In this document: positions 3,117 to 61,430 of the stretch, piece after piece
Numbering within the stretch: position 1 is the stretch's first letter
Layout of the letters: each line of letters opens with the position of its first letter
IMG/VR virus record: IMGVR_UViG_3300033075_001711
Reading direction: 5' to 3' (one strand)
From: an uncultured virus (IMG/VR IMGVR_UViG_3300033075_001711)
Taxonomy: Duplodnaviria; Heunggongvirae; Uroviricota; Caudoviricetes
Length of the DNA: 64,000 bases
Translations under genes and position numbers: made by a program
The notes under the pieces: model-generated
Told to the model about the DNA's origin: nothing
The model's database searches: none
What the model saw: only the letters and a program-made list of their open reading frames with translations

Positions 3117-3133
3117 ATCAATTCTCCTTAATT

Positions 3134-3418
3134 TTAGTGTAAATTTAACAACTGTCTTTCTCGCTCAGTTAACTTGCTCAAAGCAATTTCCCTATCCATT
3201 TTATATTTTAATACTTTGTCTTCTGCTTCTTTGTTTTTTAAATACCAATATTCTAACCCTGGAATATCATCTACCATTGCCAACCCAGCCATTTTACAAA
3301 GACTATATAACATATCTGAAAGATTTTTGTTTTCTGTTTCCAGAGAAATTATAACCCTTTGTAAATTTTCATTTTGATTCCGAGCATCTACTAATTTAGC
3401 TTCATCATCATAATACAT
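3134..3418 (-). CDS. hypothetical coiled-coil protein
   Basis: ORF in operon; C-terminal ALSKLT.RER.LL. Confidence 0.65.
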   Translation of the reverse strand: MYYDDEAKLVDARNQNENLQRVIISLETENKNLSDMLYSLCKMAGLAMVDDIPGLEYWYLKNKEAEDKVLKYKMDREIALSKLTERERQLLNLH

Positions 3419-3438
3419 AAAATGTGCCCCCTAAAATT

Positions 3439-3951
3439 TTAAAGTTTTAGAAACTTAGAAACTTCAGACTCTAACGTGTAAACCTCAACACTAACTCCAG
3501 CTCCAGCTCCTACTAACTCCTCTTCTATAATTTTTTCTATAATCTCCCACCTAGCCCCTGCAAGCCCACAACCTATACGCGGCATTACAACTTTCCAATT
3601 CAAACCTAATTTTAAAATTTCATTTCTAACATTCCTCAATCCATCCCTAATAGCATCATATCTAATAGGTGGAACATTTCCTTTAGAATATATATCATGT
3701 TGACCTATTAGATTAGCAACATATATATCCTTTTCTACTTCTACATATTGAACCGCCCCTAATTTATACAATATATTTCCAGAAGCACTCCATTTTCTAT
3801 ACGCAAACTCAGGCGCTTTCCATTTACGAGAAAGTGCCGTTACAAATCCCTTCCCCCATTTACCAGGACTACAATCATTACAGACATGTACTAAAATGGC
3901 GGGAGCCTTTATGTTTTCTAAAACATCTCCAACTTTATAAACAATACTCAT
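3439..3951 (-). CDS. macro domain (Appr-1''-p processing / ADP-ribose hydrolase) protein
   Basis: Y.VGD, HVCND..G.WGKGF..AL..KW, VANLIGQH, MPRIGCGLAGA.W motifs. Confidence 0.9.
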   Translation of the reverse strand: MSIVYKVGDVLENIKAPAILVHVCNDCSPGKWGKGFVTALSRKWKAPEFAYRKWSASGNILYKLGAVQYVEVEKDIYVANLIGQHDIYSKGNVPPIRYDAIRDGLRNVRNEILKLGLNWKVVMPRIGCGLAGARWEIIEKIIEEELVGAGAGVSVEVYTLESEVSKFLKL

Positions 3952-3969
3952 AATAAATCCTCAATCCTC

Positions 3970-4311
3970 CTAAACTAACTCATATGTTCCATAATCATAA
4001 ACATTCAAAGAACAATTAAAAAAGAACTTTAATGTCTCACGCTTATACACAGCGTCTCTCAATCCCGCCCTATATAAAACATTATGCTCCTGCTCTAATT
4101 TATCTTGTTTTAACTCAAAAGATTTTTTCTGCCTCTCCATTTCTAATACTTGTCTCTCTTTATCCTGTATTTTTAACTCCTCTATTGCTTTCTGTAAATC
4201 TTCTAACTGTAAAAATACACGATCATCATTTATCTTTTCCCAAATATCATAATCTCCATTCGTGTTTTTATACACAATGTAATAAACAGTTCTAGGTAAT
4301 TCCAAATCCAT
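3970..4311 (-). CDS. hypothetical protein
   Basis: ORF in operon. Confidence 0.65.
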   Translation of the reverse strand: MDLELPRTVYYIVYKNTNGDYDIWEKINDDRVFLQLEDLQKAIEELKIQDKERQVLEMERQKKSFELKQDKLEQEHNVLYRAGLRDAVYKRETLKFFFNCSLNVYDYGTYELV

Positions 4312-4338
4312 AAAATTAAATGTTCTCCTAAACTAAAA

Positions 4339-4641
4339 CTAAGACATGTAAAAATCAGCAAATTTAAATCCTAAAGGCTCAGTTTTTGCCCTAAACTCAC
4401 GCAATAAAACATTTTCAGCTTCTTTTCCTTTTTCACGAATATCTCCATAACTAAACATCTTCTGTCCCGTAAAATCTCTCATTATAAAATTTCCTATGTT
4501 CTCCTTTAATAACGTATCCATCCCCCACCTCTGATACTCAGCATCAAACCTCTCATTTAAAAATCTCTCCGACCTTAAATAATCTAAACTAGGAGAAAAT
4601 CCAAACGCATCCCATAAAGAATCCTGAATGTCCTGATTCAT
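4339..4641 (-). CDS. hypothetical protein (start uncertain)
   Basis: ORF in operon; several candidate starts between 4641 and 4674. Confidence 0.55.
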   Translation of the reverse strand: MNQDIQDSLWDAFGFSPSLDYLRSERFLNERFDAEYQRWGMDTLLKENIGNFIMRDFTGQKMFSYGDIREKGKEAENVLLREFRAKTEPLGFKFADFYMS

Positions 4642-4664
4642 AACTGCTAGTTTTGAATTCATAT

Positions 4665-5045
4665 CTAAACACACTCCTTTTCAATTCCTAACTCAATCAC
4701 TAATTTATCACCACTCTGTATTACAGATGTTCTCCAACCTAACTTCTTAAAATATACTACCAAATTCTCCATAAAATCCGGAACCTGCCTAAGAAAATCT
4801 CTCAAACTTAATTTCTGAGATCTCACCTCCATGCTACTATTTAAATGATTTTCTAAAATCACAGTCTCCGCCCCAGAACCACTTAACTGTTTTATTTTAG
4901 ATTTTAATCCATTTATAATATGATTCGCCCAATCCTCATGCAATCTCTTCTTTACTTCCTCATTAGCAGAAACAAAATTCTCTGCACTATATTCATTATC
5001 ATTCTCAGTTCCATCGACCCAAAAATCACTGCTAAGATAACTCAT
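4665..5045 (-). CDS. hypothetical protein
   Basis: ORF in operon with GAGGAG RBS. Confidence 0.7.
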   Translation of the reverse strand: MSYLSSDFWVDGTENDNEYSAENFVSANEEVKKRLHEDWANHIINGLKSKIKQLSGSGAETVILENHLNSSMEVRSQKLSLRDFLRQVPDFMENLVVYFKKLGWRTSVIQSGDKLVIELGIEKECV

Positions 5046-5048
5046 AAT

Positions 5049-5573
5049 CTATTTCTCCTCTAAATTTGAATTAACTATACCTTTATCATACATATATACT
5101 TCTATATCCGGACCTAATTCCTCCTCTACTATCTTCTCTAACTCAACTAAATCGTTTTTTATATTCCCCTTCCCTAACCTATCACTCAATACCACATATC
5201 TTAAACCAGACATGTCCTCTAAATTCTGTATTTGCTTCCTCACATCTTGTAAAGCAATTCTCAAACTATCCTGTCTTATCCCCGACCTTCTACCTATCTT
5301 ATACCACCCAGCCTCCACTATCATGTTCGCTACATATACCCCATCACTCACCATAACATATTGCACCGCTCCCATTACATAATTCTCATGCTCCTTATTA
5401 CAATCAGAAGAACTCCACCTCCTATATCTTGTCTCCACTATCTCAAATTTATTTCCTAACTCTATCAAAAATGGAGAACCCCACCTACCAGGTATACAAT
5501 GACTACACGCATTTAATAAAAAACACGGAGCCTTTAAATTTTCTAATACATCACCTTTAACTCTAGTTAACAT
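5049..5573 (-). CDS. divergent macro-domain protein, paralog of 3439..3951
   Basis: shares GDVLEN.KAP, PG.WG, YR.WS.S, GAVQYV.V...YVAN.I, IR.D..R..L..VR, EKI.EEEL with 3439..3951; lacks the PRIGCGLAG loop. Confidence 0.75.
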   Translation of the reverse strand: MLTRVKGDVLENLKAPCFLLNACSHCIPGRWGSPFLIELGNKFEIVETRYRRWSSSDCNKEHENYVMGAVQYVMVSDGVYVANMIVEAGWYKIGRRSGIRQDSLRIALQDVRKQIQNLEDMSGLRYVVLSDRLGKGNIKNDLVELEKIVEEELGPDIEVYMYDKGIVNSNLEEK

Positions 5574-5587
5574 ATTTTCCCCTATAC

Positions 5588-6031
5588 TTAAACCTTAAAT
5601 TTCCTAGGAAACTCATCCAGAATCATCTCTACTTCCACATTTCCTAATTCTATTGTTTTAAATTTCCCACTCCGAATCAACTCATTACTATATACAGGCT
5701 GTACCCCATTAATACACGCAACCGTTATATGCGGAACCTGATTATCAGACACTAAATTTCCTAAATCTAACCTATCTACAGGTATAACTTGCGCCTTCTC
5801 ATCATATACCAACCTATCCACTTTTATTCTATATCTCCTCCCTATTAATGGTTCATAATGATCCATGTCAATCTCACTAGGCTTATATTTTAATGTCACA
5901 TGATCCAAATACACACGATCATATAACTCTATTCCTTTACTTACCTCTATCAAATTTGATAACAAATCCCTAGACTTATTTACCAAAAACAACCCAACAT
6001 AAATTGGCAACTTACTCATTATTCTACCCAA
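5588..6031 (-). CDS. 2H phosphoesterase (tRNA-ligase CPDase-like)
   Basis: two HxT motifs (DHVTL, PHITV) plus PVYSNELI. Confidence 0.75.
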   Translation of the reverse strand: MGRIMSKLPIYVGLFLVNKSRDLLSNLIEVSKGIELYDRVYLDHVTLKYKPSEIDMDHYEPLIGRRYRIKVDRLVYDEKAQVIPVDRLDLGNLVSDNQVPHITVACINGVQPVYSNELIRSGKFKTIELGNVEVEMILDEFPRKFKV

Positions 6032-6428
6032 CCCTCTCTAAATTTATATAATATGTCAAATTATCCCTTACATGTGCTAATGCTTTAGACCAAGCCTTTT
6101 CCTCCGAAACATCTGAAATTGTAAATTTAATATCATTTACTGATTTAACCCTATAACTATATTTTTTAGAATTTAAAAACATGTTCGTCTCTTCTGATCT
6201 TATAACTGTATCCAATACCATAAAATCAAATTTTTCAAATATCTCCTTATACCTCTCTAAAGAAATATCCACTATCTCATACGGCCCAAATTTACATCCC
6301 TCTCTTTTAGAAAAATACTGATCTAAAACCCTCTTGTTTCGCCCTATTACACAACCCTTGGGTCTATAATTATCTCGCAACAAATCTGCCATTACAATTG
6401 GTAAATTTTCGAATATAAATTCACTCAT
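6024..6428 (-). CDS. hypothetical protein
   Basis: first ORF after the promoter at 6479-6507. Confidence 0.65.
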   Translation of the reverse strand: MSEFIFENLPIVMADLLRDNYRPKGCVIGRNKRVLDQYFSKREGCKFGPYEIVDISLERYKEIFEKFDFMVLDTVIRSEETNMFLNSKKYSYRVKSVNDIKFTISDVSEEKAWSKALAHVRDNLTYYINLERVG

Positions 6429-6615
6429 TCTTTCTATCCTCTGTATTTATAGGATAAACTGGAAATAGGCACGCTATTTATATAATATCTAAAACCTGTT
6501 TTGTCAATAGCCCCCTCTCCCCCCGCACATAAAACTAAAAATAAAATCTTATACATAAATAACTATAATAATTTCACCTCTTCCCTAAACTATTCTCAAA
6601 ATTTTCTAAAATCTC

Positions 6616-7029
6616 CTAAAGATCTATCCTTCCCAATCCTCCTCCATCCAAACTGTAATATATACTCCTAACCTTAAATGCACTCAACAATGCACAACAC
6701 TTCTTACAGGGCTTAGATAACCTAACCGAACCCTCTACTGGCGTCACCCTCACTACCAATATAGAACTACCTCGCAATAACCCCCTAGGAACCTTCCGTG
6801 CTATATCACACTCAGCATGTAACGCAAATGCCCTCTCCGATATAGGATTGTGAATCTGCGTCACATCATTCCTGTTAAAACCACTAAATATAGCTCCAAG
6901 TTTAGGATGCATCAATATAGCACCATGCTTCATCCTGTGCTGACTCCTCTTCGCTATATTTATAGCTCGCTTATACATATTTATATCTACAGCCCTAACT
7001 CCTACCCCAGCTCCACATACCCTATACAT
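6616..7029 (-). CDS. Zn-dependent cytidine/deoxycytidylate deaminase-family protein
   Basis: KHGAIL, SGFN, LHAE, SKPCKKC, IYYS motifs. Confidence 0.85.
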   Translation of the reverse strand: MYRVCGAGVGVRAVDINMYKRAINIAKRSQHRMKHGAILMHPKLGAIFSGFNRNDVTQIHNPISERAFALHAECDIARKVPRGLLRGSSILVVRVTPVEGSVRLSKPCKKCCALLSAFKVRSIYYSLDGGGLGRIDL

Positions 7030-7074
7030 ATAACACCTGCTCTCCTAATTTCTAATTTTCATTTCATACTCTCC

Positions 7075-7103
7075 CTTATAATACCCCATATATGTTTTGT
7101 CAA
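7075..7103 (-). promoter_or_regulatory. sigma70-type promoter
   Basis: TTGACA-N17-TATAAG upstream of the deaminase; a similar promoter lies at 6479-6507. Confidence 0.7.
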
Positions 7104-7324
7104 TAGCCACAGCCCAGCACAAGCCTACATATAAAAAATATATAAATTTCACAAACTTCACAAATTTCCCAGCAAATACTCTTTTAAAAATTCTTTATTC
7201 TAAAAAATATAATAGAATAAAAACAATTTATCTATATACCAAATGAAAAATTTACGGGGGTTTGCTGTAAATAACATATATCTAGAAATTTTTGGAATTT
7301 ATATAAAATTCTAGTATATGTACC

Positions 7325-7775
7325 TAAATCACATATCTTTATTCTTAATAAACTTCCTAGATTTATAATTATGGTAAAGGATTTAACTATTCGTTTTATC
7401 TTTTACCTTTATAACATATAAATACATTTTTATATAACATATTAAGAATAAATCACATAAATTTTTATATATGGTAAATGATCTAACTATTCGTTTTATC
7501 TTTTACCTTTATTCTTAATAAACTACATAAATTTTAAGGTCTAGGATATAAATCACCCTTATTCTTATGTCTATTACATAAAATGTTTTTATTTTTCATT
7601 ATTGTATATGATCTAACTTTACGTTTTATCTTTTACCCTTATTCTTAATAAACTACAGAGATTTTAAGGTTTATTACATTAGGGTATATGATCTAACTAT
7701 ACGTTTTATCTTTTACTTTTAAAATACATAAATCACTCTTATTCTTATATCTATTACATAAAATGTTTTTAAATT
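7325..7775. repeat. AT-rich direct-repeat tract (candidate origin/terminus element)
   Basis: 4 copies of GATYTAACTWTWCGTTTTATCTTTTAC at 7380, 7480, 7610, 7690; TTATTCTTAATAAACT x3; AAATCAC..TTATTCTTAT.TCTATTACATAAAATGTTTTT x2. Confidence 0.85.
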
Positions 7776-8415
7776 TTCGCAAAAAAAATTTTTTGAAAAA
7801 CTTGAAAAAAATGCGCGGCTAAAAATCCAGAAAATAAAACTCTAAATTTATTTTATCTCTATACTAAACTACAAAAAAACAAAGAGAGCCTCAAAAATTA
7901 GTGTTTTTTTGGCTCTTTTAAAACAGTATATTTACTTGTTTTTCTTAGCTACAAAATTAGTGCTTTCTACATTCAGAAATTTTGTGGCTAAAGTATAGGT
8001 AGTGTACTCAGAGAGAGGTTTAACATAACCTCTGCGGGGGCGAGTTTTACCAAACAGGCCCATTGCAATTTTACCTTTTCTGGAACGTCTATCTCCACGA
8101 GCCATAAAATAATCCTCCGATTTCAGTAGTTGTTAAACGGGGCAGTGTTGTGTACAAAAAAATAGCGGGATGTTTTAAATCCTGTTTTTGTATTTTTTAA
8201 TATTCTACACTGAATGTTTTTTTGCAGGTTCACATCTACGAATTAATCCGACTTATGGTTGCGGTACGTAGTCACACTCTTACCTTAGCTTAATTGCAAA
8301 TCAACATAAAATTTAGAGTATTAAATTTTACATGTATATACTTTACTTATTTAATATTGTGGTTTTTGAATGTATATTCTTAATATGTAGAATTTAAATT
8401 AAGGTTTAACACATT

Positions 8416-8730: not shown

Positions 8731-8735
8731 CTAAA

Positions 8736-8810
8736 TACGCCCGCACAGATTCGAACTGTGGTTCTAGCATTAGAAGTGCTATTTCTTGTATCCAATTAGA
8801 AGACAGGCGC
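8736..8810 (-). tRNA. tRNA-Arg(UCU)
   Basis: cloverleaf: TAGCA-CT TCT AA-TGCTA anticodon arm, CACAG-TTCGAAT-CTGTG T arm; no encoded CCA. Confidence 0.9.
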
Positions 8811-9026
8811 AAACAAATATATTTAATGTTTATTGGTATAATTATGAGCCCAGACCATAACAGTTCCAAGGCCAAGTAGCCATAGGAGAGGGCTGGTTAG
8901 CATACTTTCACCAAAATTAAATAAAAATACTACAATAAAGAGAATTGCTGCTACATATTTAATTAGGGTAAAAGGGAGGCTATTTTTATTAAATTCAAGC
9001 ATTTAATTTTTTCCTTTTTACAAAAA

Positions 9027-9114
9027 TGGTTGGTAGGAGTGGATTCGAACCACTGAACGTCGTTAGACGGGGAGTTTTACAGACTCCATCCTTTAGCCAC
9101 TTGGATACCTACCA
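9027..9114 (-). tRNA. tRNA-Tyr(GUA)
   Basis: GGAGT-CT GTA AA-ACTCC, long variable arm, AGTGG-TTCGAAT-CCACT, encoded CCA. Confidence 0.95.
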
Positions 9115-9129
9115 ATAAATTTAAAACCC

Positions 9130-9288
9130 AGAACATTAGAAGGATTTGAACCTTCAATAATCAGTTACGTCACACTGTTCTGATCCGGTGGATTCTGCCA
9201 TGAGTGTGGACCTTGGGATCACTCTTGCAAGGCCATTCTTTATTGGCTTAAGCCACACCGCTGTCTGCCATTTCCAGCATAATGTTCT
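9130..9288 (-). ncRNA. Leu-type tRNA body with ~60-nt structured insert in the anticodon arm
   Basis: acceptor AACATTA/TAATGTT, D arm CTG-GAAATGGCAGA-CAG, CGGTG/CACCG, long variable arm, T arm GAAGG-TTCAAAT-CCTTC. Confidence 0.75.
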
Positions 9289-9770
9289 TTTTGGTTTATC
9301 AACTGAAAAGATGCCGTCCCTTCAGATCTGCCAATTACGGACGGTAGGACGATTACATAATTTTCATATATAATCAGGCAGTATTTGAGCACATCTTTTC
9401 AAACAAGAGTTTTTGTATTTCACCTAGATTTGCCAGTTTCTAGGATCCCTACTAGGTAATCTCCTAACCTATGTTACATACTTTCAAATGTAACTGATAA
9501 CTTTATTTTACTTAAGTTGTGTTATTCAACTATTAAAGCTCAACTCCACTTTCTGACATGGCACCGGGGAGGACCCGTCAGATAGACTTTAGAGACATGA
9601 TATTTAAACATTGGTTATATTCAACATTTAAAAACGAGGTGGTTCACGACTCCCAAGAAAATTTTTAGGTTTTCTCCCTCTTATCTCCTAAAGAGGCATC
9701 CTTCCTAGCCCCTGTTTAATCTAAAATATTGTGGCTTACTATTTAGTGTTTTTACCTACACTATATCTTT

Positions 9771-9835
9771 TATAGTTACGGATTCTTACCGTCCGCTGGA
9801 CTCAAAACCAGTCCTCTTCATTGAGGTAAACTATA
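9771..9835 (-). ncRNA. miniature/degenerate tRNA-like cloverleaf
   Basis: TATAGTT/AACTATA acceptor, CCTC/GAGG D stem, CTGG/CCAG with 8-nt loop TTTTGAGT, ACGG-TAAGAAT-CCGT. Confidence 0.5.
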
Positions 9836-10212
9836 TAGGATATTTTGTTTTTCAAGAAACAGTTCTATATGATTGGTAAAAATCTTCAGAACTGTCAACC
9901 TACCACAACTTGAGATATTATTTTAGATTTTTTGATTATTATAAAAAGGATAAATTACTGGAATATTTCAACTGGCCTTGGCAAACATGGTTAGTGTTTT
10001 TATTTCCTTAAAGGGAGCTGTGCCAATTGCGTAATTTATCTAGAAAAATAACCACTTTTTCTATTTATCTTTTTATAATAACTTTTGTGACTTTGTGTGT
10101 ATTTGCAGGGCTTAAACCCAGCCACACACTAGAGTTTAGAATGTGTTTAGTCACACTATTGTATGAAAAATTACAATCAAAACTCAGGGTCAGTCACCTG
10201 TCTCCTGTTTTT

Positions 10213-10241
10213 ATTATAACACCTAGTTTCTTGTTTGTCAA
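10213..10241 (-). promoter_or_regulatory. consensus sigma70 promoter (extended -10)
   Basis: TTGACA-N17-TATAAT with TG immediately upstream (TGT TATAAT). Confidence 0.9.
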
Positions 10242-10265
10242 GAGGCTAGGGTTAAAATTTTAAAA

Positions 10266-10395
10266 AACTCAGATTAAATTTTTTAGCGGCTGCTGCTCTC
10301 CCCCTGAGCTATTCTGGAGAGAGTCTCCAGAAGAAAGATTTGAACTTTCGACCCGCAGCTTGGATGCTTATTTTTGCTGAATTTAATCTTTAGTT
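10266..10395 (-). ncRNA. circularly permuted tRNA-like RNA (YrlA/Y-RNA topology)
   Basis: order: GCTGC, variable loop, T arm GAAAG-TTCAAAT-CTTTC, 9-bp acceptor-like stem closed by a 3-nt loop, D arm GCTC-AGGGGGA-GAGC, GCAGC; enclosed by a 10-bp terminal helix followed by CAGCAA. Confidence 0.8.
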
Positions 10396-10399
10396 AAAA

Positions 10400-10481
10400 T
10401 AGGGTAGGAAAGACTTGAACTTTCACGGATTTCTCCAGCAAATTTTGAGTTTGCCCCCTGTACCTGTTCGGGTACTACCCC
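10400..10481 (-). tRNA. tRNA-Leu(CAA)
   Basis: GCAAA-CT CAA AA-TTTGC, long variable arm, GAAAG-TTCAAGT-CTTTC. Confidence 0.92.
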
Positions 10482-10589
10482 AAATAATTCAGAAATAAAC
10501 CTTTTCCACTTCATTGGTTAGCTAGACCTCCATGTTGGAGGTTTATTTCTGAAGTTTTTTTCTGATTCTTTAGTTATAGCAAATATTAA

Positions 10590-11335
10590 TTTTGCAACCA
10601 GATACAAAACTAAATTCCTCACCACTTTCTCATCACATACATTCAGGAAACCTTACTATGTAAAATTCAGCAGGTGACGCTGGGCCTCAATTCATTTATA
10701 CTCAGTAGTGGGCCAGCCTGAGTTAAGTCTAGAGAGACTATTACTATTTCCACTAAGGATTTAGAGTTTAAATCTCTTTTTATAGTAAACTAGACTTGTT
10801 TTACTCTAGGCAAGTGTTTCGCTTGCAATTGTCATAATGACCGCAGGTTAAGAACCACTAGAGTAGATAAGATGTGTTTCATATTTCCAGGTTTGCATTA
10901 GCCCATAATTTTACAACACATCTAATCTCAATTGTTCCCTGTAGAGATTAACCAGATCCCAGATACTTTTGCTTTCGAAATTTCTCTGGTTTGAAATTTA
11001 TATCTAGTTTCTACTTTGATACATTACCTCGTACCAGTTCACTGGCCTTTTACGCGCCCATGTTCCAGTTCCCCGGTCTTTCACGTATCATTTTGTTGCC
11101 AGATACAAATTTCGTTTATGCTAGGAGCTAGGAGCTAGGAGAGAAAAATATTACATTCACGCGAGCAGTCCCTACTCTGACCAGTCATGTCTGTAACATT
11201 CTTCTCACAATAGGTTGTCCTAGTTAGGGAACAACACGCCTATTGTTTTTATCCTATTTGAAAAACACTACCTTGTCTATATGACAATCAGGTTTAGTAC
11301 CTTTTCGTGTTTTTCTGAGCTGAGAGGTTTTTCAC
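10590..11335 (-). ncRNA. candidate large multi-domain ncRNA (~750 nt)
   Basis: ORF-free; about 9 consecutive closing helices; promoter directly upstream at 11348-11376. Confidence 0.55.
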
Positions 11336-11347
11336 TCTCTCTCTATC

Positions 11348-11376
11348 TTTATAACACCTCGGGACTGATTTGTCAA
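11348..11376 (-). promoter_or_regulatory. sigma70-type promoter
   Basis: TTGACA-N17-TATAAA with GGTGT before -10; a second promoter at 11451-11479. Confidence 0.8.
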
Positions 11377-11727
11377 GAGGTGTTAGTAAGAATTTTTTTG
11401 TGGGGTTGTGAGAGGTGAGTTTTTTGTTTCAGTCCCGCCTCTCATTATTATGTATAATATCTAGTTTGAGGTTTGTCAAGTGAGCTGGGCTGGGTTAGAA
11501 AATTTATGTTTTTAATTATCTCTGTAAATTTAGATTTATATAAAATAGTGCAGATACCTAGGATTCACTGCATAGTATATAAATACCCGCAAAAAAGATT
11601 CGGTCGTTCGGGTTTTGTTTGGGAGTTATACAGCCCTGCCTTTATTATGCTAAACACGTCTGTAAAGCTTTTATGGGGGAGCTTCTGTACCAAACTAAAT
11701 TTACAGAGATAATTAGGAACATAAAAT

Positions 11728-12063
11728 TTATGTGTTTGTAATAAAAATCCATTCTCCTGCTATATACATCATATTATATTCAATAGGAGGTTCAGGTGGA
11801 AATGGATTAGGAAATTCGTAATTAGCTGGAAAAATTTCTTTTAGGATAAAACGATATTCATATTTATTAGGAACTTCTTTTGTGGATAACATCGCTGTTA
11901 TTTTATCACAAAGGTTTTGAAATTTCGGAATTTCTGTAAATGATTCGTCACAACTAAAACATAGATGTGTGATGACATCATTTAACATAATTGTTGGAAG
12001 AGATTTAAATCTCATGTTTTTTGTGTGAGTGTGAAGATCACAACCACAATTACATTGGAGCAT
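11728..12063 (-). CDS. MqsA/YgiT-type zinc-finger protein lacking the HTH
   Basis: CxC...LPTIML.DV..HLCFSCDE...EIP....L...I...L..K......EYRFI pattern; AAAGGA RBS. Confidence 0.55.
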   Translation of the reverse strand: MLQCNCGCDLHTHTKNMRFKSLPTIMLNDVITHLCFSCDESFTEIPKFQNLCDKITAMLSTKEVPNKYEYRFILKEIFPANYEFPNPFPPEPPIEYNMMYIAGEWIFITNT

Positions 12064-12279
12064 AGGAAGTTTCCTTTTTATTTTGTTGATATTTAACAAC
12101 ATGTATATTTTCGTGTGTTTCCATATGACAATTTAAACATAATAAATCACATTTATCTACTTCGGAAATTACTTCTTGCCAATTTTTATAACTTGCATTA
12201 GATATAGTAAATTTCTAATTTTTCCATCTATACAAAAATGGTTAGAAAATTTTTCATTACAGTTTAAACAAATTGGCAT
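12049..12279 (-). pseudogene. internally deleted, frameshifted HNH endonuclease
   Basis: frame 1 MPICLNCNEKFSNHFCIDGKIRNL (matches the 8416 N-terminus); frame 2 FTIS...NWQEVISEVDKCDLLCLNCHMETH (HNH C-terminal half). Confidence 0.7.
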
Positions 12280-12342
12280 ATATTAAATAACCTTTCAGTT
12301 ATTATATACACCAACGTAGCTTAATTTTTAGGCTACTCTAGA

Positions 12343-12621
12343 TTAAAGTGGAGATAAATTTTTCCTAATCCAGTGCAAAGTTTTATTTTTTATTTCTCCT
12401 GAACTTAATGTTTTAATATCAGCGGAGTCATTCTCAACATTAAAAACATCGTATTCTATAGAGAGTTTATTTTTATTTACATATTTTCCAGGCTTTATTT
12501 CCACATGTTTTAGTTTTTCATACTCCTCTAAATATTTTTGTTGTGCGGAGGATATTTCATATCCTTTTTCTTTTGCACGCAAAATGGATTGCATCATAAA
12601 ATCTTTAGAAGACATAAACAC
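12343..12621 (-). CDS. hypothetical protein
   Basis: 92-aa ORF with GAGG RBS downstream of tRNA-Ile. Confidence 0.65.
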   Translation of the reverse strand: MFMSSKDFMMQSILRAKEKGYEISSAQQKYLEEYEKLKHVEIKPGKYVNKNKLSIEYDVFNVENDSADIKTLSSGEIKNKTLHWIRKNLSPL

Positions 12622-12635
12622 CTCGAATTATAATA

Positions 12636-12713
12636 TGGGCACACTTGGATTTGAACCAAGGAATGACGCAGTTTATAAGGCTGCCGCCCTAGACCAGACT
12701 AGGCGATGTGCCC
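12636..12713 (-). tRNA. tRNA-Ile(UAU)
   Basis: GGGCACA/TGTGCCC, GCAGC-CT TAT AA-ACTGC, CTTGG-TTCAAAT-CCAAG. Confidence 0.88.
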
Positions 12714-12724
12714 GAAAATTTGAA

Positions 12725-12800
12725 CTGTAGGGGAGGGATTCGAACCCCCGAAAATAGGCGTGTTAACAGCACGCTGCCTTACCAACTTGGCGACCCTACA
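12725..12800 (-). tRNA. tRNA-Asn(GUU)
   Basis: GCGTG-CT GTT AA-CACGC, TTCGAAT T loop; acceptor/T junction appears one nt short. Confidence 0.85.
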
Positions 12801-12823
12801 TTTTTTACTTACCGCACTCTATC

Positions 12824-12852
12824 TTTATAACACCTCAAGACCGGGTTGTCAA
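12824..12852 (-). promoter_or_regulatory. sigma70-type promoter for tRNA-Asn/Ile
   Basis: TTGACA-N17-TATAAA; second promoter TTGACA-N17-TAGATA at 12942-12970. Confidence 0.8.
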
Positions 12853-13206
12853 GAGGTGGTTGAAAGTTTATTTTTAGAGGGAGGAGGGTGAGGTTCTCCA
12901 TAGACTTTTACCATGCGCCCGCACTCTTTTCCCATACTCTTTATCTAACACCTCCGGACTAGATTGTCAAGAGGGTTTGAGGTATTTATTTTACGATACC
13001 TCGTCCTGGGCATCCTGGCCTAGGACATTGAACATATGAGTCTGAATCCGTAACAAAAAAGTTACCAAAACATAATAATAAATTTTGTTGTCCTTCCTTA
13101 CCTTTCTCCGAAGAGAGAGGTTGTTACGAAACGATATTAGAAATCAAGTTACCTTTTTTAAAGAGGTTCACGCCTTAACACTGTCGGCAATTACATCCTC
13201 CAAATA

Positions 13207-13345
13207 AATCTCAAACTGTATTGTTCCCATTTAATTTTAATAGCAAACAGGATAAAGCTATTTAGATTGTTGTCCCGAGAGACAACTCTCTGTTTGATGC
13301 GAGTATTAGTCGCCAGTATTTTTTGCTGAATACAGTTTTTAGATT
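13207..13345 (-). ncRNA. Y-RNA-like stem family member 2
   Basis: TAA-AAACTGTATT-CAGCAA ... AATACAGTTT-GAG. Confidence 0.65.
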
Positions 13346-13412
13346 ATTTAAGAATTGTTAAATTTAATCAGAGTTGAACTGATACAACGAGGTGCCCCCC
13401 GTATGTTTAGCC

Positions 13413-13443
13413 ATTTCAATTCACATTAGAGTAAATCTAATGA
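13413..13443 (-). repeat. solitary CRISPR-repeat-like unit 1
   Basis: TCATTAGA-TTTAC-TCTAATG-TGAATTGAAAT. Confidence 0.55.
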
Positions 13444-13452
13444 TTTTTATAA

Positions 13453-13510
13453 AACTCAGACTAATTTTGGTTGTTATGTAAAACGTGAGTTGCTGAAATT
13501 AGTCTTTAGT
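13453..13510 (-). ncRNA. Y-RNA-like stem family member 3
   Basis: TAA-AGACTAATTT-CAGCAACTCACGTTTT ... AAATTAGTCT-GAG. Confidence 0.65.
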
Positions 13511-13520
13511 GAAAATGAAA

Positions 13521-13602
13521 TTGCGGGTCCTGGAATTGCACCAGGTTTACCAAATGGCAGAAGGTTATGAGCCTTCCCAGCTACTGTTGCTGAATACCCG
13601 CA
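13521..13602 (-). tRNA. tRNA-Met(CAU), atypical (long variable arm)
   Basis: TGCGGGT/ACCCGCA, GAAGG-CT CAT AA-CCTTC, TGCC-ATTT-GGTA variable hairpin, CCTGG-TGCAATT-CCAGG. Confidence 0.8.
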
Positions 13603-13636
13603 CAAAATAAATACCTCAGTTTAATGTTTGCTTTTG

Positions 13637-13670
13637 ATTTCAATTCAACATTAGAATTTTATTCTAATGA
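13637..13670 (-). repeat. solitary CRISPR-repeat-like unit 2
   Basis: TCATTAGAAT-AAA-ATTCTAATG-TTGAATTGAAAT. Confidence 0.55.
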
Positions 13671-13676
13671 AATTAA

Positions 13677-13750
13677 TCTAGCATGAATGATTTGAACATT
13701 CGACCTCTCGGATCCAAACCGAGCGTTCTCCCAGGCTGAACTAATGCTAG
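13677..13750 (-). tRNA. tRNA-Pro(UGG)
   Basis: CTAGCAT/ATGCTAG, CTCGG-TT TGG AT-CCGAG, GAATG-TTCAAAT-CATTC. Confidence 0.92.
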
Positions 13751-46965: not shown

Positions 46966-47024
46966 TTGGCAAGCTTTTTGCCTCAACGCCCACGGACGTG
47001 GCCCGGCTGGGCCGCTTGTCAAGA
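46966..47024. repeat. module-boundary element 10
   Basis: TGGCA-N6-TTGC, core CCACGGACGTGG 46990-47001, inverted TTGACA 47017-47022. Confidence 0.9.
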
Positions 47025-48494: not shown

Positions 48495-49001
48495 CTAAGC
48501 CCCCACAAGTTCAGGCGTCGTTTCAGAATTTTCTGTATCAGATTCAGAGGAAGGGCTTCCTCCAAACCAGTTTGAGAAAATGTTTGCCAGAAAATTTCCT
48601 TCGGATTGAACATGATTGTGGGGGCGGCACCGTGCCCTTCCCACCCAACCCAGAGCACCCACAATTGAATTCTGAACCAAACTGAATTCCTCATTCAGAG
48701 AATTCAGAGCATCTTGCATTGGGAACCAGGAGAAATCTCGGAGGATCACATTTCCTTGGCGGAACTTAAGTTCCCCATTCTTGTTGATATCCACCTGAAC
48801 CTTTTCCCCATTCAGGTTCAGAACCAACGTAGGCTTTCCAAACACAAGAGACTTGTTCTGTTCATTGCTGTAAACATCCACGTCAAGTCTCAGAATCCTG
48901 TTTTCAACCTGAACAGCAAAAGTAGTTCCGTTTGCTCGCTTCACAATGATACCCTTAGAAACCAGAGCTTGCGGAGTATTAACCGTCTTAATTCGTCCCA
49001 T
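48495..49001 (-). CDS. hypothetical protein
   Basis: AAGGAG RBS before MGRIKTV at 49001. Confidence 0.75.
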   Translation of the reverse strand: MGRIKTVNTPQALVSKGIIVKRANGTTFAVQVENRILRLDVDVYSNEQNKSLVFGKPTLVLNLNGEKVQVDINKNGELKFRQGNVILRDFSWFPMQDALNSLNEEFSLVQNSIVGALGWVGRARCRPHNHVQSEGNFLANIFSNWFGGSPSSESDTENSETTPELVGA

Positions 49002-49284
49002 GTTACACTCTCCTTTTGTTATCTGAACTTCAGTCTCAAACCTTACTCTACTGTTATAACTCTTTTTTACTCTTTTGTCAATCCTTTTTCTTTTTTTGTA
49101 TTTTTTATTTCCCTCTTGTTTTTCAACATTTTCTTTATTTTCTTTCACACTCTCTCCAACAAGATCACTAATAGTGTCTCAAAAGAGTTTTGTCAAGATC
49201 CCTTTTTTTGTAATTTTAAAAATTAATCTATATTGACATAAACCTTTTTAAGTGTTATATGATCTAGTAATGGAGGAAAAAACC

Positions 49285-49548: not shown

Positions 49549-49730
49549 CATGAAATTTATTCCAAGAAACCCAGAATTACCTATTTTTTCTGATTTTTTA
49601 TTAAATGTCCACAATAAATATTTCTATGATATGGCAAAACCTAAATATGACGAAAATGAAACTATCTTAGGTTGGGAAATTTTTGGGGAAAAAGAGGTTG
49701 ACACTAAAATTGAAAATACCCCTTCTTAGC

Positions 49731-49837
49731 CCTTGACAAGCGGCCCAGCCGGGCCATGTCCGTGGGCAAAGCGTATATTACATATCCCTATTGTCTGATA
49801 TACGCCTAAAAGGAAAGGGGGGTATTTAACCCCCTTC
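49731..49837. repeat. module-boundary element 12
   Basis: TTGACA(49733), core 49754-49765, AT spacer, terminator. Confidence 0.9.
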
Positions 49838-50160
49838 TCACTTCTTAACCTTACGGTTTATCTTTACCCTGAAACCCCTAACATTGTCCAGGTGAGTTGT
49901 TCGGATCATTCCACCCATTGAATAGGTAATAATCCTACCATGAAAACAAAGAACCTTTCCGTTAAGAAACCCGTCTTGAATCTGAATCATAAAATTTTAC
50001 CCCCTAAACAATTCTGACAGTGATTCGGAAATTACCCTTTAGGTAATTGAGAAACCTATCAAACCAAGAAAAGGAACCTGAACCAAGTTTACCAATAATC
50101 AAGCTATTTTCACCTTCAACCTGAACCCACATGATACCAGCCTCCGCTTTTATTAAAGGT

Positions 50161-50496
50161 CTAATCTGAAATCTTTTTTAGTATAACTTCAATTTCATGT
50201 TTAATAAAAGAAATTCCTTGTTTGTCAATTATAGTTTCTGGTAATCCTCCACTGATTTCAGAGGTTTTTTCAAAAGCATATTCCAGAATATCTTGATCAG
50301 GAGGACATTCATCTCTTTTTAATGCGGCAAAACAAACCAAACTTCTTACCAAAACATCAGAGACAGATACAACTTCATATTTAATTTGTTGGTTGTGGTT
50401 GTTTAAATCTCGGAAATAAACTGTTCGGCCAATTAAAGGGGCATTCCCTTTTGAATTGAAAAGATGTCCTTTTTCATCATACCATCGGATTATCAT
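50161..50496 (-). CDS. hypothetical protein
   Basis: AAAGGA RBS. Confidence 0.7.
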   Translation of the reverse strand: MIIRWYDEKGHLFNSKGNAPLIGRTVYFRDLNNHNQQIKYEVVSVSDVLVRSLVCFAALKRDECPPDQDILEYAFEKTSEISGGLPETIIDKQGISFIKHEIEVILKKISD

Positions 50497-50583
50497 TTAT
50501 TTCCTTTCTATTCAAACAAGATTGTCATAAATGAATTGAGCCATTTCCCCGCGCCTTTACATTCAATTCCATTTTTCCCACCT

Positions 50584-50637
50584 TTATGCTAAAGTCAATA
50601 AACGAGAGTTTAATTTATCAGGAGGTGCTCGAATCAT
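50584..50637 (-). CDS. micro-ORF MIRAPPDKLNSRLLTLA
   Basis: AAAGGT RBS; RAPP motif. Confidence 0.55.
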   Translation of the reverse strand: MIRAPPDKLNSRLLTLA

Positions 50638-50686
50638 TTATTTGTTACCTTTCTTTTAGTGTATGTTATTTATTTATTTTGAGTTT

Positions 50687-50713
50687 TTACGGCGAGTCTC
50701 GAATATTATTCAT
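50687..50713 (-). CDS. micro-ORF MNNIRDSP
   Basis: AAAGGA RBS; paralog of the next two micro-ORFs. Confidence 0.6.
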   Translation of the reverse strand: MNNIRDSP

Positions 50714-50822
50714 GTTTCATTTTCCTTTAGTTTTATTATTCTAGGTTTTTATTTTTTAAAATTTCACATTTTCATAAACCCACTTTCTTCATAATGTAAG
50801 TTGTTTATTAAATCTATTGTAA

Positions 50823-50852
50823 TTAAACCGGAGAATCTCGAATATTATTCAT
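50823..50852 (-). CDS. micro-ORF MNNIRDSPV
   Basis: AAAGGA RBS; differs from the 50687 copy by synonymous changes. Confidence 0.6.
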   Translation of the reverse strand: MNNIRDSPV

Positions 50853-50898
50853 TTAGTGTTCCTTTTTAGTTTTATTAAAATTCTTTGTTACAATGTTT

Positions 50899-50925
50899 TC
50901 AGGTCTGATCTCTTATTCTATTCAT
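50899..50925 (-). CDS. micro-ORF MNRIRDQT
   Basis: AGAGGA RBS; first ORF after the promoter at 50980-51008. Confidence 0.55.
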   Translation of the reverse strand: MNRIRDQT

Positions 50926-50979
50926 TCAACATTCCTCTTTAGTTTTTGCTCACTCACTCTTTCTCACTCTCACTCTATT

Positions 50980-51008
50980 GTTATAACCCTATTTTCTTTA
51001 TTTGTCAA
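50980..51008 (-). promoter_or_regulatory. sigma70-type promoter driving the micro-ORF array
   Basis: TTGACA-N17-TATAAC. Confidence 0.8.
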
Positions 51009-51447
51009 GCCTCTTTTGCTCCAGCATTTTCTTTTTTTCTTCTAGCTGTTTCTGTAGTTCCTCAATTTCCTTCTCAATTTTTCTGATATTATCTACCCTA
51101 TTCTCTTCTTGTAATTCTTCAATAAAACCTTTCCTATCCAAAAGAGAGTGGATGGAATCTTCACAAAATTCTTTTACTGTATCCCTCATTTTGGAAGTAA
51201 TTTCTTTATCAAAATCATCAGCTCTTTTTAAATAACATCCAGCCCAGGATAAAGTGTTTCTGGAAAGGCTCTTTCGGAAATGAATTGAGCTATAGAACTC
51301 AATTTTTCGGATTTGAAATCCTTTGTTTTCAAACTGAAACACAAAACTAATTTCATCTTTTTCTTCAATATATGCACAATGAACTGTAACAGGATGTTCA
51401 ATTCCAAATGGGGTTTTCAACAAAACTTGCATTATTTTCACCCTCAC
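50998..51447 (-). CDS. hypothetical protein with C-terminal coiled coil
   Basis: ORF behind its own TATAGATC promoter. Confidence 0.7.
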   Translation of the reverse strand: MRVKIMQVLLKTPFGIEHPVTVHCAYIEEKDEISFVFQFENKGFQIRKIEFYSSIHFRKSLSRNTLSWAGCYLKRADDFDKEITSKMRDTVKEFCEDSIHSLLDRKGFIEELQEENRVDNIRKIEKEIEELQKQLEEKKKMLEQKRLDK

Positions 51448-51524
51448 CTTATGTTAGATCTATAACCCCTATTTTTAGATTCCGCAAGGGGTAACTAAAA
51501 TTATAAAAAATTTAATCCTACCCT

Positions 51525-51638
51525 ATTGACAACTAGTCGAAAGCCCCACCTCCGTGGTTTCTCAGACAATGGGTATATTTGATATAAATATTGTCTGATA
51601 TAGGTATAAAAGGAAAGGGGTTATAATGACCCCTTTTC
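51525..51638. repeat. module-boundary element 13
   Basis: TTGACA(51526), core CCACCTCCGTGG 51546-51557, terminator. Confidence 0.88.
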
Positions 51639-51645
51639 AGAATCT

Positions 51646-52161
51646 CTACACCCAAGCGGGTTTCCTATCAGTGTCGGGAAGGTTTTTCAACCATGCTAAA
51701 ACATTTTTAGGAACATTGATTTTAAACCAAGAAGACCCATATAATCTGGATTTTCCTTTGTAAACATCTGGATTCAGGTTGTTTTCAGAAAGTATCTTTC
51801 TTGCCCAACTGTAATGATCACCATGAACATTAGGATCAAATGTCTGTTTTTCAAGAAATTTCATTTGTCTCGGAGTTCCGGCTTTCATATCATTAAGATG
51901 CCATTTCCTCCAAACATTTAGAAATTTATCAACTAATTTCTGATCCCAGCCTTTTCCAAAATTTTGAAAATCAGTCTTTTTAAGACTCATTTCAATTTGA
52001 CCACAGCCTTGAGCATTGCCTGAAATTGTAGGTCCAATAACCCCACAAATAGATAGTCTTGAGTTTTTGAAAGAGATTTTACAGAAAACAGAATGATTTT
52101 TTCTCCAACCTTGAACTGTTCCTAACCTAACTACTTTCACAAAATCTTCAAAAGGTTTCAT
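51646..52161 (-). CDS. conserved hypothetical phage protein
   Basis: LSI.G..GP..SGN...CGQI, W..WHLNDMKAGTP.Q, YG..W pattern. Confidence 0.75.
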   Translation of the reverse strand: MKPFEDFVKVVRLGTVQGWRKNHSVFCKISFKNSRLSICGVIGPTISGNAQGCGQIEMSLKKTDFQNFGKGWDQKLVDKFLNVWRKWHLNDMKAGTPRQMKFLEKQTFDPNVHGDHYSWARKILSENNLNPDVYKGKSRLYGSSWFKINVPKNVLAWLKNLPDTDRKPAWV

Positions 52162-60407: not shown

Positions 60408-60527
60408 TTTTTATTCCCTCATTTCGTGATGGTCTGGAGAATAGAGTTTTCCGGATTTTTTCATTTTATTTTTATAATAATCCTATACTATGTGTGGCTT
60501 TATACACAAATTTAATGGGATTTTGTG

Positions 60528-61430
60528 ATGAAAAATACTTGGTCTTTACAACAGTTAAATTTTTTAATTGAAAATTATGCAAACAACGGATCCAAATTTT
60601 GTGTTGAGAAATTAAATAAAACAACTAAACAAATTAATGGCAAAGCATCCAAATTAGGCTTAAAAGTGAATCCAGAGGTACTATTTTTAAATAAATCAAA
60701 TGCAAGGAAAGGTAGGGCGCAACCTAAGTATGTTTCACTATCACAGAATTTTGTTAGTCATTTTACTAAAGAATCCGCATATGTTCTGGGATTTTTATGG
60801 GCTGATGGGTTTTTAATTAAAACTAGCGGCAATATAGGAATTGAACTTCAAATTGAAGATTTTCAACAAGTTGAGCAAACATTTTTTGTTACATATCCTT
60901 GGTCTAAATTTTTAAGACAGCGCGAAAATCGCAAACCTCAAGGTAGATTTTCTGCAAAGAACCTTACACTTTATAAATTTTTGTTTGAAAATGATTATCA
61001 AACAAAAAGCATATCTTCAGCCTGTAAAATATTAAATAAATTACCGGAAAATTTAAAACATTATTGGTGGAGAGGATATTTTGATGGTGATGGTTGTATT
61101 TATGTAAATTTGAAAAACCAAACCTATCAAGTCTCTTTCGCAGGATCTTATGACCAGGATTGGACTTTTGCTGAAAATTTACTTAAAACTTTAAACATTA
61201 AATATACTATTTCAAAAACTATACATAAATCCAATAAAAGTTCTAAAGTCAGGTTTACAGGAAAATCTAACATAAAAAAATTTTATGATTATATTTATAG
61301 GGACATGAATTTTGGATTGATGCGGAAATTTGAAAAATTCATGTCCATACCTAATTTATTTAATTCAGATCCAGATCATATTCAATATAGTAATAACCAT
61401 ATCCAAAGTCTAATTGATAATATTCTTTAA
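60528..61430 (+). CDS. free-standing LAGLIDADG homing endonuclease
   Basis: two motifs AYVLGFLWADG and WWRGYFDGDGC; inserted antisense to the flanking genes. Confidence 0.88.
   Translation: MKNTWSLQQLNFLIENYANNGSKFCVEKLNKTTKQINGKASKLGLKVNPEVLFLNKSNARKGRAQPKYVSLSQNFVSHFTKESAYVLGFLWADGFLIKTSGNIGIELQIEDFQQVEQTFFVTYPWSKFLRQRENRKPQGRFSAKNLTLYKFLFENDYQTKSISSACKILNKLPENLKHYWWRGYFDGDGCIYVNLKNQTYQVSFAGSYDQDWTFAENLLKTLNIKYTISKTIHKSNKSSKVRFTGKSNIKKFYDYIYRDMNFGLMRKFEKFMSIPNLFNSDPDHIQYSNNHIQSLIDNIL

Follow-up and report, generated by a model that had tools for sequence, protein, structure and literature searches.

Short open reading frames (ORFs) in the leaders of bacterial mRNAs are known to take part in the expression of the genes behind them. 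In S. meliloti, leader sites were predicted from the Shine-Dalgarno (SD) motif together with a start codon; 13 of the 15 sites tested were translated, and nine affected the downstream gene (PMC13285730). In the LEE1 leader of enterohaemorrhagic E. coli (EHEC), a two-codon minigene is described as needed for ler expression (PMC3262186). Strong SD sites are also reported to stabilise the mRNAs of SP82, ermC and others (PMC7509114). Here, we analysed a leader of about 470 nucleotides (nt) in a 64,000-nt stretch of DNA (the window) from the uncultured Caudoviricetes virus IMGVR_UViG_3300033075_001711. It lies on the minus strand between a sigma-70-type promoter and the gene of a 111-amino-acid (aa) protein and holds five micro-ORFs, each led by its own SD sequence. 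Compared with the described systems, the array would best be described as leader upstream ORFs (uORFs) or minigenes in a four-copy paralogous form in a phage early leader.

The array shares several traits with the reported bacterial leader uORFs, namely an SD sequence and a start codon within a regulated leader, very short ORFs and a position that matters relative to the main ribosome binding site (RBS) (PMC13285730, PMC3262186). In the window, five such sites were found in the leader of the same predicted transcript, with no terminator-like site between. In contrast to the bacterial examples, there are five mini-cistrons, four of them paralogous, which are spread over 470 nt of a predicted phage early leader and do not overlap the main RBS. 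A second possible likeness is to the SD-type 5' stabilizers (SP82 polypurine, ermC/ermA leader, gsiB, aprE; PMC7509114). At the locus, polypurine letters and a strong SD are found no more than about 50 nt from where the 5' end is predicted, and ribosomes bound there could block 5'-end-dependent decay. The reported stabilizers are single sites characterised in Bacillus, whereas the locus described here has five sites and a predicted 5' end (PMC7509114).

Micro-ORFs and repeat units in the leader

The initial annotation of this DNA had placed five SD-led micro-ORFs behind a promoter at 50980-51008. All five were confirmed at their coordinates on the minus strand, and the promoter was recovered as one of eight perfect sites of a promoter family. 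The features of the leader are as follows.

51008-50980, minus strand: predicted early promoter, sigma-70-type, with TTGACA at 51008-51003, a 17-nt spacer and TATAAC at 50985-50980
50975-50949, minus strand: (GAGTGA)n-like tract made up of purines only, at the 5' end predicted for the transcript, as read from the sequence
50950-50899, minus strand: unit U1, with A-rich tract, SD GAGGA, 7 nt and ATG; ORF for MNRIRDQT at 50925-50899
50877-50823, minus strand: unit U2, with TAATAAAACTAAA, SD AAGGA, 7 nt and ATG; ORF for MNNIRDSPV at 50852-50823
50738-50687, minus strand: unit U3, with TAATAAAACTAAA, SD AAGGA, 9 nt and ATG; ORF for MNNIRDSP at 50713-50687
50668-50584, minus strand: unit 4, diverged, with SD core AAGG(T) and ORF4 for MIRAPPDKLNSRLLTLA at 50637-50584
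50572-50525, minus strand: ORF5 for MELNVKARGNGSIHL, with SD GGTGG; not related to the repeat

The SD cores of the five micro-ORFs lie 5-10 nt ahead of the ATG. Both cores and spacings match the range of the real genes of this phage, as 65 of the 79 minus-strand ORFs of at least 90 aa carry an SD-like core, mostly at a spacing of 5-10 nt. U1, U2 and U3 have the layout of minigenes (SD, AUG, an ORF of 2-8 codons and a stop), with 8, 9 and 8 codons, respectively, and an SD 7-9 nt away. ORF4 and ORF5 are longer (17 and 15 codons). The SD of ORF5 begins directly 3' of the ORF4 stop, which leaves 11 nt between this stop and the ORF5 ATG, and 28 nt separate the ORF5 stop from the ATG of the 111-aa gene.

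The number of micro-ORFs was compared with 2000 dinucleotide-preserving shuffles of the 479-nt leader. The shuffles contained 0.85 ± 0.93 SD-led ATG micro-ORFs, compared with the five observed, and five of the 2000 shuffles reached this number. The cluster thus exceeds chance, but its members are not independent, because three are copies of one direct repeat and ORF4 is a fourth. The repeat spans 39-49 nt in U1, U2 and U3 and includes the upstream A-rich block and the SD. U2 and U3 match over 49 nt at 78% identity, and between them two blocks are fully identical, TAATAAAACTAAA (13/13) and ATGAATAATATTCGAGA (17/17). The diverged copy in the ORF4 unit was detected by repeat search and alignment (24 nt at 75%). 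Spacing between the units is irregular (73, 139 and about 70 nt). In all four copies an SD at the right spacing is followed by an ATG in frame with ATT/ATA-CGA/AGA, which encodes Ile-Arg. In ORF4 the ancestral start position is lost and a replacement in-frame ATG stands directly before ATT CGA. Pattern, blastn-short and nhmmer profile searches found no further copies in the window; the profile was built from the four units and matches those four by construction, and the next match had an E-value of 0.91.

Promoter family and character of the leader

Exact matches to TTGACA-N16-18-TATAAY occur eight times in the 64 kb, all on the minus strand, where 0.19 would be expected, and none of 100 shuffles reached eight. 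Of the other seven promoters, five have the SD and ATG of a long ORF within the next 21-51 nt, one stands at the head of the tRNA region and one falls within an ORF of 435 aa. The 149-aa gene upstream has its stop codon (51000-50998) overlapped by the promoter at 51008-50980, on the side of the -35 hexamer. It is by its sequence a member of the predicted early promoter family of this phage, and the only one with a long leader after it. Because it belongs to this family, the leader is predicted to be transcribed.

Two further observations concern the promoter family. The family promoter 49081-49053 is followed by an initial transcribed sequence very similar to the one behind 51008-50980. This site lies inside a listed ORF (48495-49148), whose true start is probably an SD-led in-frame ATG about 51 nt downstream. 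In the tRNA region at 10206-12993, variants of the early family (TTGACAA...TTATAA) occur four times, which suggests that the tRNAs may be early transcripts.

On the transcribed strand the leader between the promoter and the 111-aa gene is composed of 47% A and 10% C. Its minimum free energy is -58.9 kcal/mol, compared with -68.5 ± 5.5 kcal/mol for shuffled sequences (z-score +1.73), and all of 100 shuffles folded at least as well. Weak folding and an A-rich, C-poor composition are as expected for ribosome-accessible RNA and not for a structured non-coding RNA. Since a promoter and micro-ORFs with credible RBSs coincide with an unusually unstructured RNA, the mini-genes of the leader are probably translated.

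The initial annotation had called these 500 bp apparently empty, which, the micro-ORFs apart, held true for tRNAs, Rfam matches and long ORFs on either strand. In the leader, neither a tRNA nor a tRNA remnant was found, and no Rfam match appeared even at E-values up to 1. Other explanations of the stretch were tried and rejected. A structured non-coding RNA was dismissed on the basis of the folding worse than shuffles and the lack of an Rfam family. A long ORF under a recoded stop was dismissed as well, as all three stop codons occur in every frame of both strands. Four ORFs on the plus strand (42-52 aa) all lack an SD and are the Phe/Leu-rich antisense of the A-rich strand.

A proposed translated leader acting in cis

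Tentatively, we favour the reading that the array is a translated uORF or mini-cistron leader of the early operon, which would act in cis via ribosome loading, coverage or coupling. This reading builds on the observed anatomy, the repeat family, the quality of the RBSs, the membership in the promoter family, the unstructured RNA and the absence of another gene. The four related mini-cistrons would be paralogous forms of a module of about 50 nt, made up of an A-rich tract, an SD, an ATG, 0-2 codons and Ile-Arg-(Asp/Ala)-x-(Pro/Thr). Such a module resembles a typical gene start in this phage and probably originated by local duplication. Host ribosomes would initiate at the five mini-cistron sites, the first of which lies about 50 nt behind the 5' end. 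Once loaded, they would shield the AU-rich single-stranded leader from nucleases, like the SD-type 5' stabilizers. Ribosomes might be passed along the chain of ORF4, ORF5 and the gene, with its gaps of 11 and 28 nt, and so govern how the 111-aa gene is translated. The rare codons CGA, TCG and CCG, a Pro-stop ending and R-A-P-P-D may slow the ribosomes in the leader.

Several points weigh against this reading. Transcription from the promoter, translation of the mini-cistrons and an effect on the 111-aa gene are all steps that we infer. The gap of 109 nt between U2 and U3 contains no SD-led ORF. A hairpin that would mask the SD of the 111-aa gene (50516-50502 with 50464-50450) folds at chance level (z-score -0.25); the 15-nt, 87% complementary pairing of this SD region is indistinguishable from chance, and so no coupling mechanism is visible in the RNA structure. 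The synonymous codon pattern described below was tested post hoc and on four and two differences (six substitutions). After Ile-Arg, the copies U1, U2, U3 and ORF4 diverge at each of the next positions (D/D/D/A, Q/S/S/P and T/P/P/P), and because residues differ beyond Ile-Arg there is no clear purifying selection on the whole peptide. The collections searched contained no relatives beyond near-identical strains. Among these strains, the 1146 nt from 50329 to 51474, with the whole leader, carry no substitution and hence offer no contrast of synonymous and non-synonymous changes. Finally, other non-coding stretches of the phage reach up to 2150 nt within 7-17 kb. As long, repeat-rich non-coding stretches are tolerated elsewhere, the length of the leader alone is no argument for function, and that it has persisted is weak evidence for one.

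Should the array be translated and influence its operon, few examples from nature would show tandem paralogous uORFs in a phage leader with such clarity. Its compact form would then suit studies of how very short cistrons, rare codons, Pro-stop and an N-terminal R-A-P-P bear on the movement of ribosomes and the survival of the mRNA. Early gene control in large environmental phages would, in that case, gain a further level after transcription.

The same anatomy might have been left behind by evolution. Stubs of gene starts, each consisting of an RBS and the first codons, could persist as debris that is translated only incidentally and has no selected function. They would stem from local duplication, or from deletion and recombination among gene starts that resemble one another in a plastic early region, and a synonymous pattern could have been inherited from real paralogous genes. 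The extent of the repeats fits such stubs, as the similarity of the copies stops 5-8 codons past the ATG and the family is confined to the array locus. The context of an A-rich tract plus AAGGAA occurs 13 times, where 4.8 are expected, and partly at real gene starts. The 111-aa gene itself begins with M-I-I-R and has upstream of it AAATAAATGAT, which resembles the repeat units in repeat search and alignment. The flanking genes are ORFans in a region that is mosaic among strains, and other repeat-rich non-coding stretches exist in the phage. However, decaying stubs would be expected to lose an intact SD, its spacing and an in-frame ATG. These are present in four copies, and in ORF4 even through a replacement ATG. 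The composition and the lack of structure of the leader are also extreme. We regard this explanation as rather doubtful, though it deserves serious weight. If the array is debris, it would be a record of the duplication and decay of a gene-start module in plastic early regions. The whole element is shorter than 500 nt, thus either outcome is within reach of simple cell-free and reporter experiments.

Codon pattern and nucleotide blocks

The initial annotation had read the codons ATA AGA GAT (U1), ATT CGA GAT TCT (U2) and ATT CGA GAC TCG (U3) as I-R-D kept through synonymous changes, and hence as selection on the peptide. The codons are correct. Between the ORFs of U2 and U3 there are two substitutions, both at synonymous third positions (GAT/GAC and TCT/TCG); U3 also lacks the Val codon. 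Codons 2-6 of U1 and U2 differ at four positions with one amino-acid change, and ATA/ATT and AGA/CGA keep Ile-Arg. When the same number of changes was placed at random, such a synonymous pattern had a probability of 0.02-0.04 for U1/U2 and of 0.04-0.05 for U2/U3. The change from ATA-AGA to ATT-CGA affects two adjacent bases and may be a single event. Thus the pattern stands as nominally unlikely by chance, and the step from it to peptide selection is weak and post hoc. The codon differences lean towards the synonymous and would be weak evidence for peptide selection. The kept SD, spacing and in-frame ATG of the four copies are more telling and carry more weight than the codon pattern.

Several codons of U2 and U3 are seldom used by this phage, namely CGA (50 of 372 for Arg), TCG (14 of 632 for Ser) and CCG (33 of 362 for Pro), which speaks against a peptide with optimised codons. 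Such codons are used in a CpG-rich core, TTCGAGAYTCNCCG, which stands out in a leader with 10% C. A CpG-rich core of rare codons would fit slow decoding and would equally fit a site at the nucleotide level.

The latter would mean that the repeat is a nucleic-acid site with accidental ATGs. It could consist of four RNA operators for a translational repressor or an RNA-binding protein, which would serve as a decoy or sponge of RBS-like sites, or of four DNA sites for a DNA-binding protein of the phage. In phages, repeats between genes often have a regulatory role, and some 5 kb from the array there is a gene for a winged helix-turn-helix (wHTH), replication-initiator-like protein. The best-conserved parts of the array are nucleotide blocks, with TAATAAAACTAAA and ATGAATAATATTCGAGA identical in U2 and U3 at 13/13 and 17/17 positions, and the CpG-rich core in a C-poor leader with its phage-rare codons points in the same direction. 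Yet the blocks lack a conserved dyad, as CGAG-A-CTCG is present only in U3, the units are irregularly spaced, and the motif is found nowhere else in the window. U1 departs from the core of U2 and U3 exactly at synonymous positions. Moreover, a pure binding site does not require SD, spacing and frame to be kept in four copies. Taken together, this makes a pure nucleic-acid site quite unlikely.

The codons of U1 have a different character. After the ATG it reads AAT AGA ATA AGA, and AGA and ATA are common in the phage (45% of Arg and 37% of Ile codons, respectively). For each of codons 2-5 of U1, the window itself encodes a matching tRNA (Asn-GTT, Arg-TCT or Ile-TAT). In the long ORFs of the phage, such codons make up 21-25% of the total. 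Four of them in a row have a probability of about 0.002-0.004, as estimated post hoc from codon frequencies, and none of 60 long ORFs starts in this way. Because of this match, itself noticed post hoc, a device that reads or manipulates the supply of tRNAs and ribosomes was considered. The array could be a timer or sensor that ties the early operon to the point at which phage tRNAs arrive. Translation of U1 would then be paced by tRNA-Asn, tRNA-Arg(UCU) and tRNA-Ile(UAU), whose genes in the phage lie about 40 kb from the array and follow promoters of the same family, and the mini-cistrons with Pro-stop and R-A-P-P would hold ribosomes or peptidyl-tRNAs. Alternatively, it could be a battery of minigenes that acts in trans and drains tRNA, Pth, EF-P and rescue capacity of the host, while the phage's own tRNAs would keep phage translation running. 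We consider either form of such a device very improbable.

Comparison with arrest peptides and toxic minigenes

The initial annotation had likened the peptides to ribosome-arrest peptides. The closest described ones carry RAPP or RAGP motifs, and their requirements are known from mutagenesis of ApdA and ApdP. According to the mutagenesis data of PMC12992588, the Arg of R-A-P is irreplaceable. At the second position Gly is fully tolerated and Ser, Asp and Pro are tolerated in part, and the third position requires Pro, with Gly being partly functional in ApdP (PMC12992588). The core can be written as R-(A/G)-P-P, or as R-A-G-P or R-A-P-G within the contexts proper to these. An adjacent N-terminal region of about 10-20 residues in the exit tunnel is reported as essential, and residues 108-128 of ApdA as required and sufficient (PMC12992588, PMC7897499). 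In the natural examples described there, small proteins that are secreted or lie in the membrane, encoded ahead of the regulated gene, carry the motif close to their C-terminus; arrest at RAPP and RGPP is robust and is not relieved by EF-P, and proteomes avoid both motifs (PMC12992588).

The likeness did not hold for most of the array. U1 (R-D-Q-T) and both U2 and U3 (R-D-S-P) lack the core. ORF4 (M-I-R-A-P-P-D) has it, and across all six translated frames of the window there is no other RAPP, RGPP, RAGP or R[SP]PP. However, only Met-Ile precedes R-A-P-P in ORF4, so that the N-terminal region is missing. The peptide has 17 residues with the motif at positions 3-6, away from the C-terminus, and neither a hydrophobic segment nor a signal peptide. 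An mRNA switch that an arrest could remodel was sought around ORF4, ORF5 and the gene start; the folds there gave z-scores of 0.01, +1.46, -0.25 and -0.61, none of which beats shuffled sequences. What the array shares with the reported peptides is I-R-A-P-P in ORF4, compared with G-I-R-A-G-P in SecM and R-A-P-P in ApdA and ApdP, and a position ahead of another cistron (PMC12992588, PMC7897499). In ApdA, ApdP, ApcA and SecM, as described, the motif is placed near the C-terminus of a secreted or membrane protein of 100-200 aa, in contrast to residues 3-6 in ORF4 (PMC12992588). ORF4 also differs in having no adjacent region, no localisation signal and no visible structured mRNA switch. We therefore do not class the array with dedicated arrest peptides, and an arrest reading is not supported. 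A diprolyl pause at A-P-P-D of ORF4 is plausible. It is a notable coincidence that the single RAPP of the window lies inside a leader micro-ORF.

The letters that encode A-P-P in ORF4 (50629-50622, minus strand) form an 8-mer that is unique on the minus-strand sense of the window. We take this 8-mer to be identical to the anti-SD end of 16S rRNA. With an anti-SD-like 8-mer contained in the RAPP codons, what has been kept may be the nucleotides and not the peptide, or neither. No convincing pairing partner for it was found in the folds.

A broader version of this idea is that the peptides, or the act of translating them, work on the translation machinery. Nascent chains would arrest or terminate slowly, or a minigene-type peptidyl-tRNA drop-off would tie up ribosomes, tRNAs, Pth, EF-P or rescue factors, either as a sensor of translation capacity or to the detriment of the host. 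The sole R-A-P-P of the six-frame translation of 64 kb, inside an SD-led micro-ORF, is in line with this, as RAPP/RGPP arrest is reported to be robust and insensitive to EF-P (PMC12992588). U1 carries AGA-AUA-AGA at codons 3-5. AGA near the start and AGA minigenes of 3-8 codons are described as inhibiting protein synthesis in E. coli systems through accumulation of peptidyl-tRNA, and U1-U3, with 8-9 codons, fall in the length range of these minigenes (PMC2490762). U3 ends in Pro-stop, and U2 and U3 contain phage-rare codons. On the other hand, ORF4 has only two residues ahead of its motif, and its RAPP codons double as the anti-SD-like 8-mer. R-D-S-P and R-D-Q-T break the third-position rule as reported (PMC12992588), and the minigene effect is described as weakening with ORF length, so that 8 codons are at the upper end (PMC2490762). 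AGA and ATA are also common in the phage, and no related arrays were found in IMG/VR or the searches of the Joint Genome Institute (JGI) data. This version is unlikely in our view.

Classical toxic minigenes, such as those of the lambda bar type, have 2-4 codons and an effect that falls with length. The array resembles minigenes and hungry-codon starts in that an SD-led ORF of 8-9 codons stands behind a strong phage promoter, and U1 contains AGA-AUA-AGA. It differs in the greater number of codons and in the tRNA supply: the classical effect is seen under limiting Pth or tRNA, and this phage itself encodes tRNA-Arg(UCU) and tRNA-Ile(UAU).

Relatives, strain variation and expression

Relatives of the locus were searched in several collections. 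Against cultured phages, neither blastn of 49800-51700 nor tblastn of the 111-aa protein gave a match. IMG/VR gave no match to the three proteins (111, 149 and 432 aa) or to the U2/U3 pattern in its exact form, and no relative of the locus appeared in GTDB genomes or JGI metagenome contigs. The sole GTDB match to the 149-aa protein was rejected as a chance 8-mer inside an unrelated 697-aa ORF. In a search of 5.8 billion proteins, the 111-aa protein found one cluster of at least 95% identity and the 149-aa protein only itself.

The initial annotation had proposed to look for SD-led MNxIRD micro-ORFs in related phages. A codon-degenerate search for SD-MNNIRD in IMG/VR yielded 15 loci with one match each and no array, and these matches are the starts of unrelated ORFs, whose lengths range from 13 to more than 206 codons. 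Similarly, M-N-N-I-[RS]-D-x-P in JGI metagenomes gave 21 loci with one match each, one of which has an SD, and no array. Eight of the 21 loci lie inside long ORFs that share W-MNNIRDWP-SRQ, presumably an aminoacyl-tRNA-synthetase motif. The window's own phage is absent from both of these collections.

The stretch is present in 20 of the 24 public runs listed, from eight studies of sludge, wastewater, bioreactor and soil. Strains were compared in contigs from four runs of four studies. The variants, from contigs of three studies, contain 14 substitutions within 196 nt (50133-50328) on one side of the leader, and 16 substitutions plus 11 gap letters within about 180 nt (51475-51650) on the other. 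An identical block between such sharp patches points to a recombination mosaic. With regard to the debris explanation, identity of the region in contigs of three studies, with patches on both sides that differ by about 7%, speaks against it but may only reflect recombination blocks.

One run is labelled metatranscriptomic, and that it holds RNA is only a guess. It contains a 298-nt contig identical to 50652-50949, which was not counted as expression. The rest of the stretch is without cover in this run, which proves nothing, and none of the listed runs is on record as RNA. A contig joining 49819 to 51063 via 363 other letters was not used, as one side has only 21 letters and a low likeness.

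Downstream operon and genomic setting

The predicted transcription unit continues past the leader as follows; no terminator-like site was found between the promoter 51008-50980 and 49834.

50496-50161, minus strand: 111-aa gene, first long gene of the operon, with SD AAGGA, 5 nt and ATG, starting M-I-I-R
50132-50004, minus strand: 42-aa ORF, rest of the transcription unit
49990-49838, minus strand: 50-aa ORF, rest of the transcription unit
49834-49818, minus strand: intrinsic-terminator-like hairpin, end of the transcription unit

The 111-aa protein had no Pfam or PHROG match, and its best Atlas score of 0.82 was under the Atlas bar. Its AlphaFold model had a predicted local distance difference test (pLDDT) value of 62, which is too poor for a structure search.

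Several findings place the window in a large uncultured phage: it encodes seven tRNAs and RecT-like, Kyano_Gp96-family and LAGLIDADG proteins, and the contig is on record with up to 195,833 nt. The tRNAs (Arg-tct, Tyr-gta, Leu-caa, Ile-tat, Asn-gtt, Met-cat and Pro-tgg) are found at 8735-13750 in a sparsely coding region. The RecT-like protein is the 432-aa neighbour of the array, and its relatives, at less than 30% identity, occur in Vibrio, Aeromonas and jumbo phages. The wHTH, replication-initiator-like protein is encoded at 46003-45371. A 301-aa ORF at 60525-61430 on the plus strand, amid minus-strand genes, matches LAGLIDADG homing endonucleases (PF14528, 4.6e-11; phrog_4645, 2e-27).

Beside the terminator hairpin, the stretch 49725-49840 contains two more GC-rich hairpins. 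This element folds far better than shuffles, with z-scores of -3.4 on the minus and -4.9 on the plus strand. Of this element, 36 nt recur as an inverted repeat at 46988-47023 with 97% complementarity, and the pair brackets 2.7 kb with the RecT-like gene. Positions 49730-49819 have matches of about 86% in metagenome contigs whose flanks both differ from the window. The element has no Rfam match and may be a recurrent terminator, a repetitive extragenic palindromic (REP)-like sequence or a mobile intergenic element.

A second repeat array was observed at 7334-7776, where four copies of a direct repeat of about 83 nt (70-100% identity; spacing 100, 130 and 80 nt) are located in a 685-nt ORF-free stretch. 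Each copy contains an internal inverted repeat GGTAAA...TTTACC, and the array could be an origin or an array of promoters and terminators. Positions 1-8000 have a very strong plus-strand GC skew of -0.41 to -0.58 and contain 15 tightly packed minus-strand ORFs, with a coding strand that is G-rich and C-poor.

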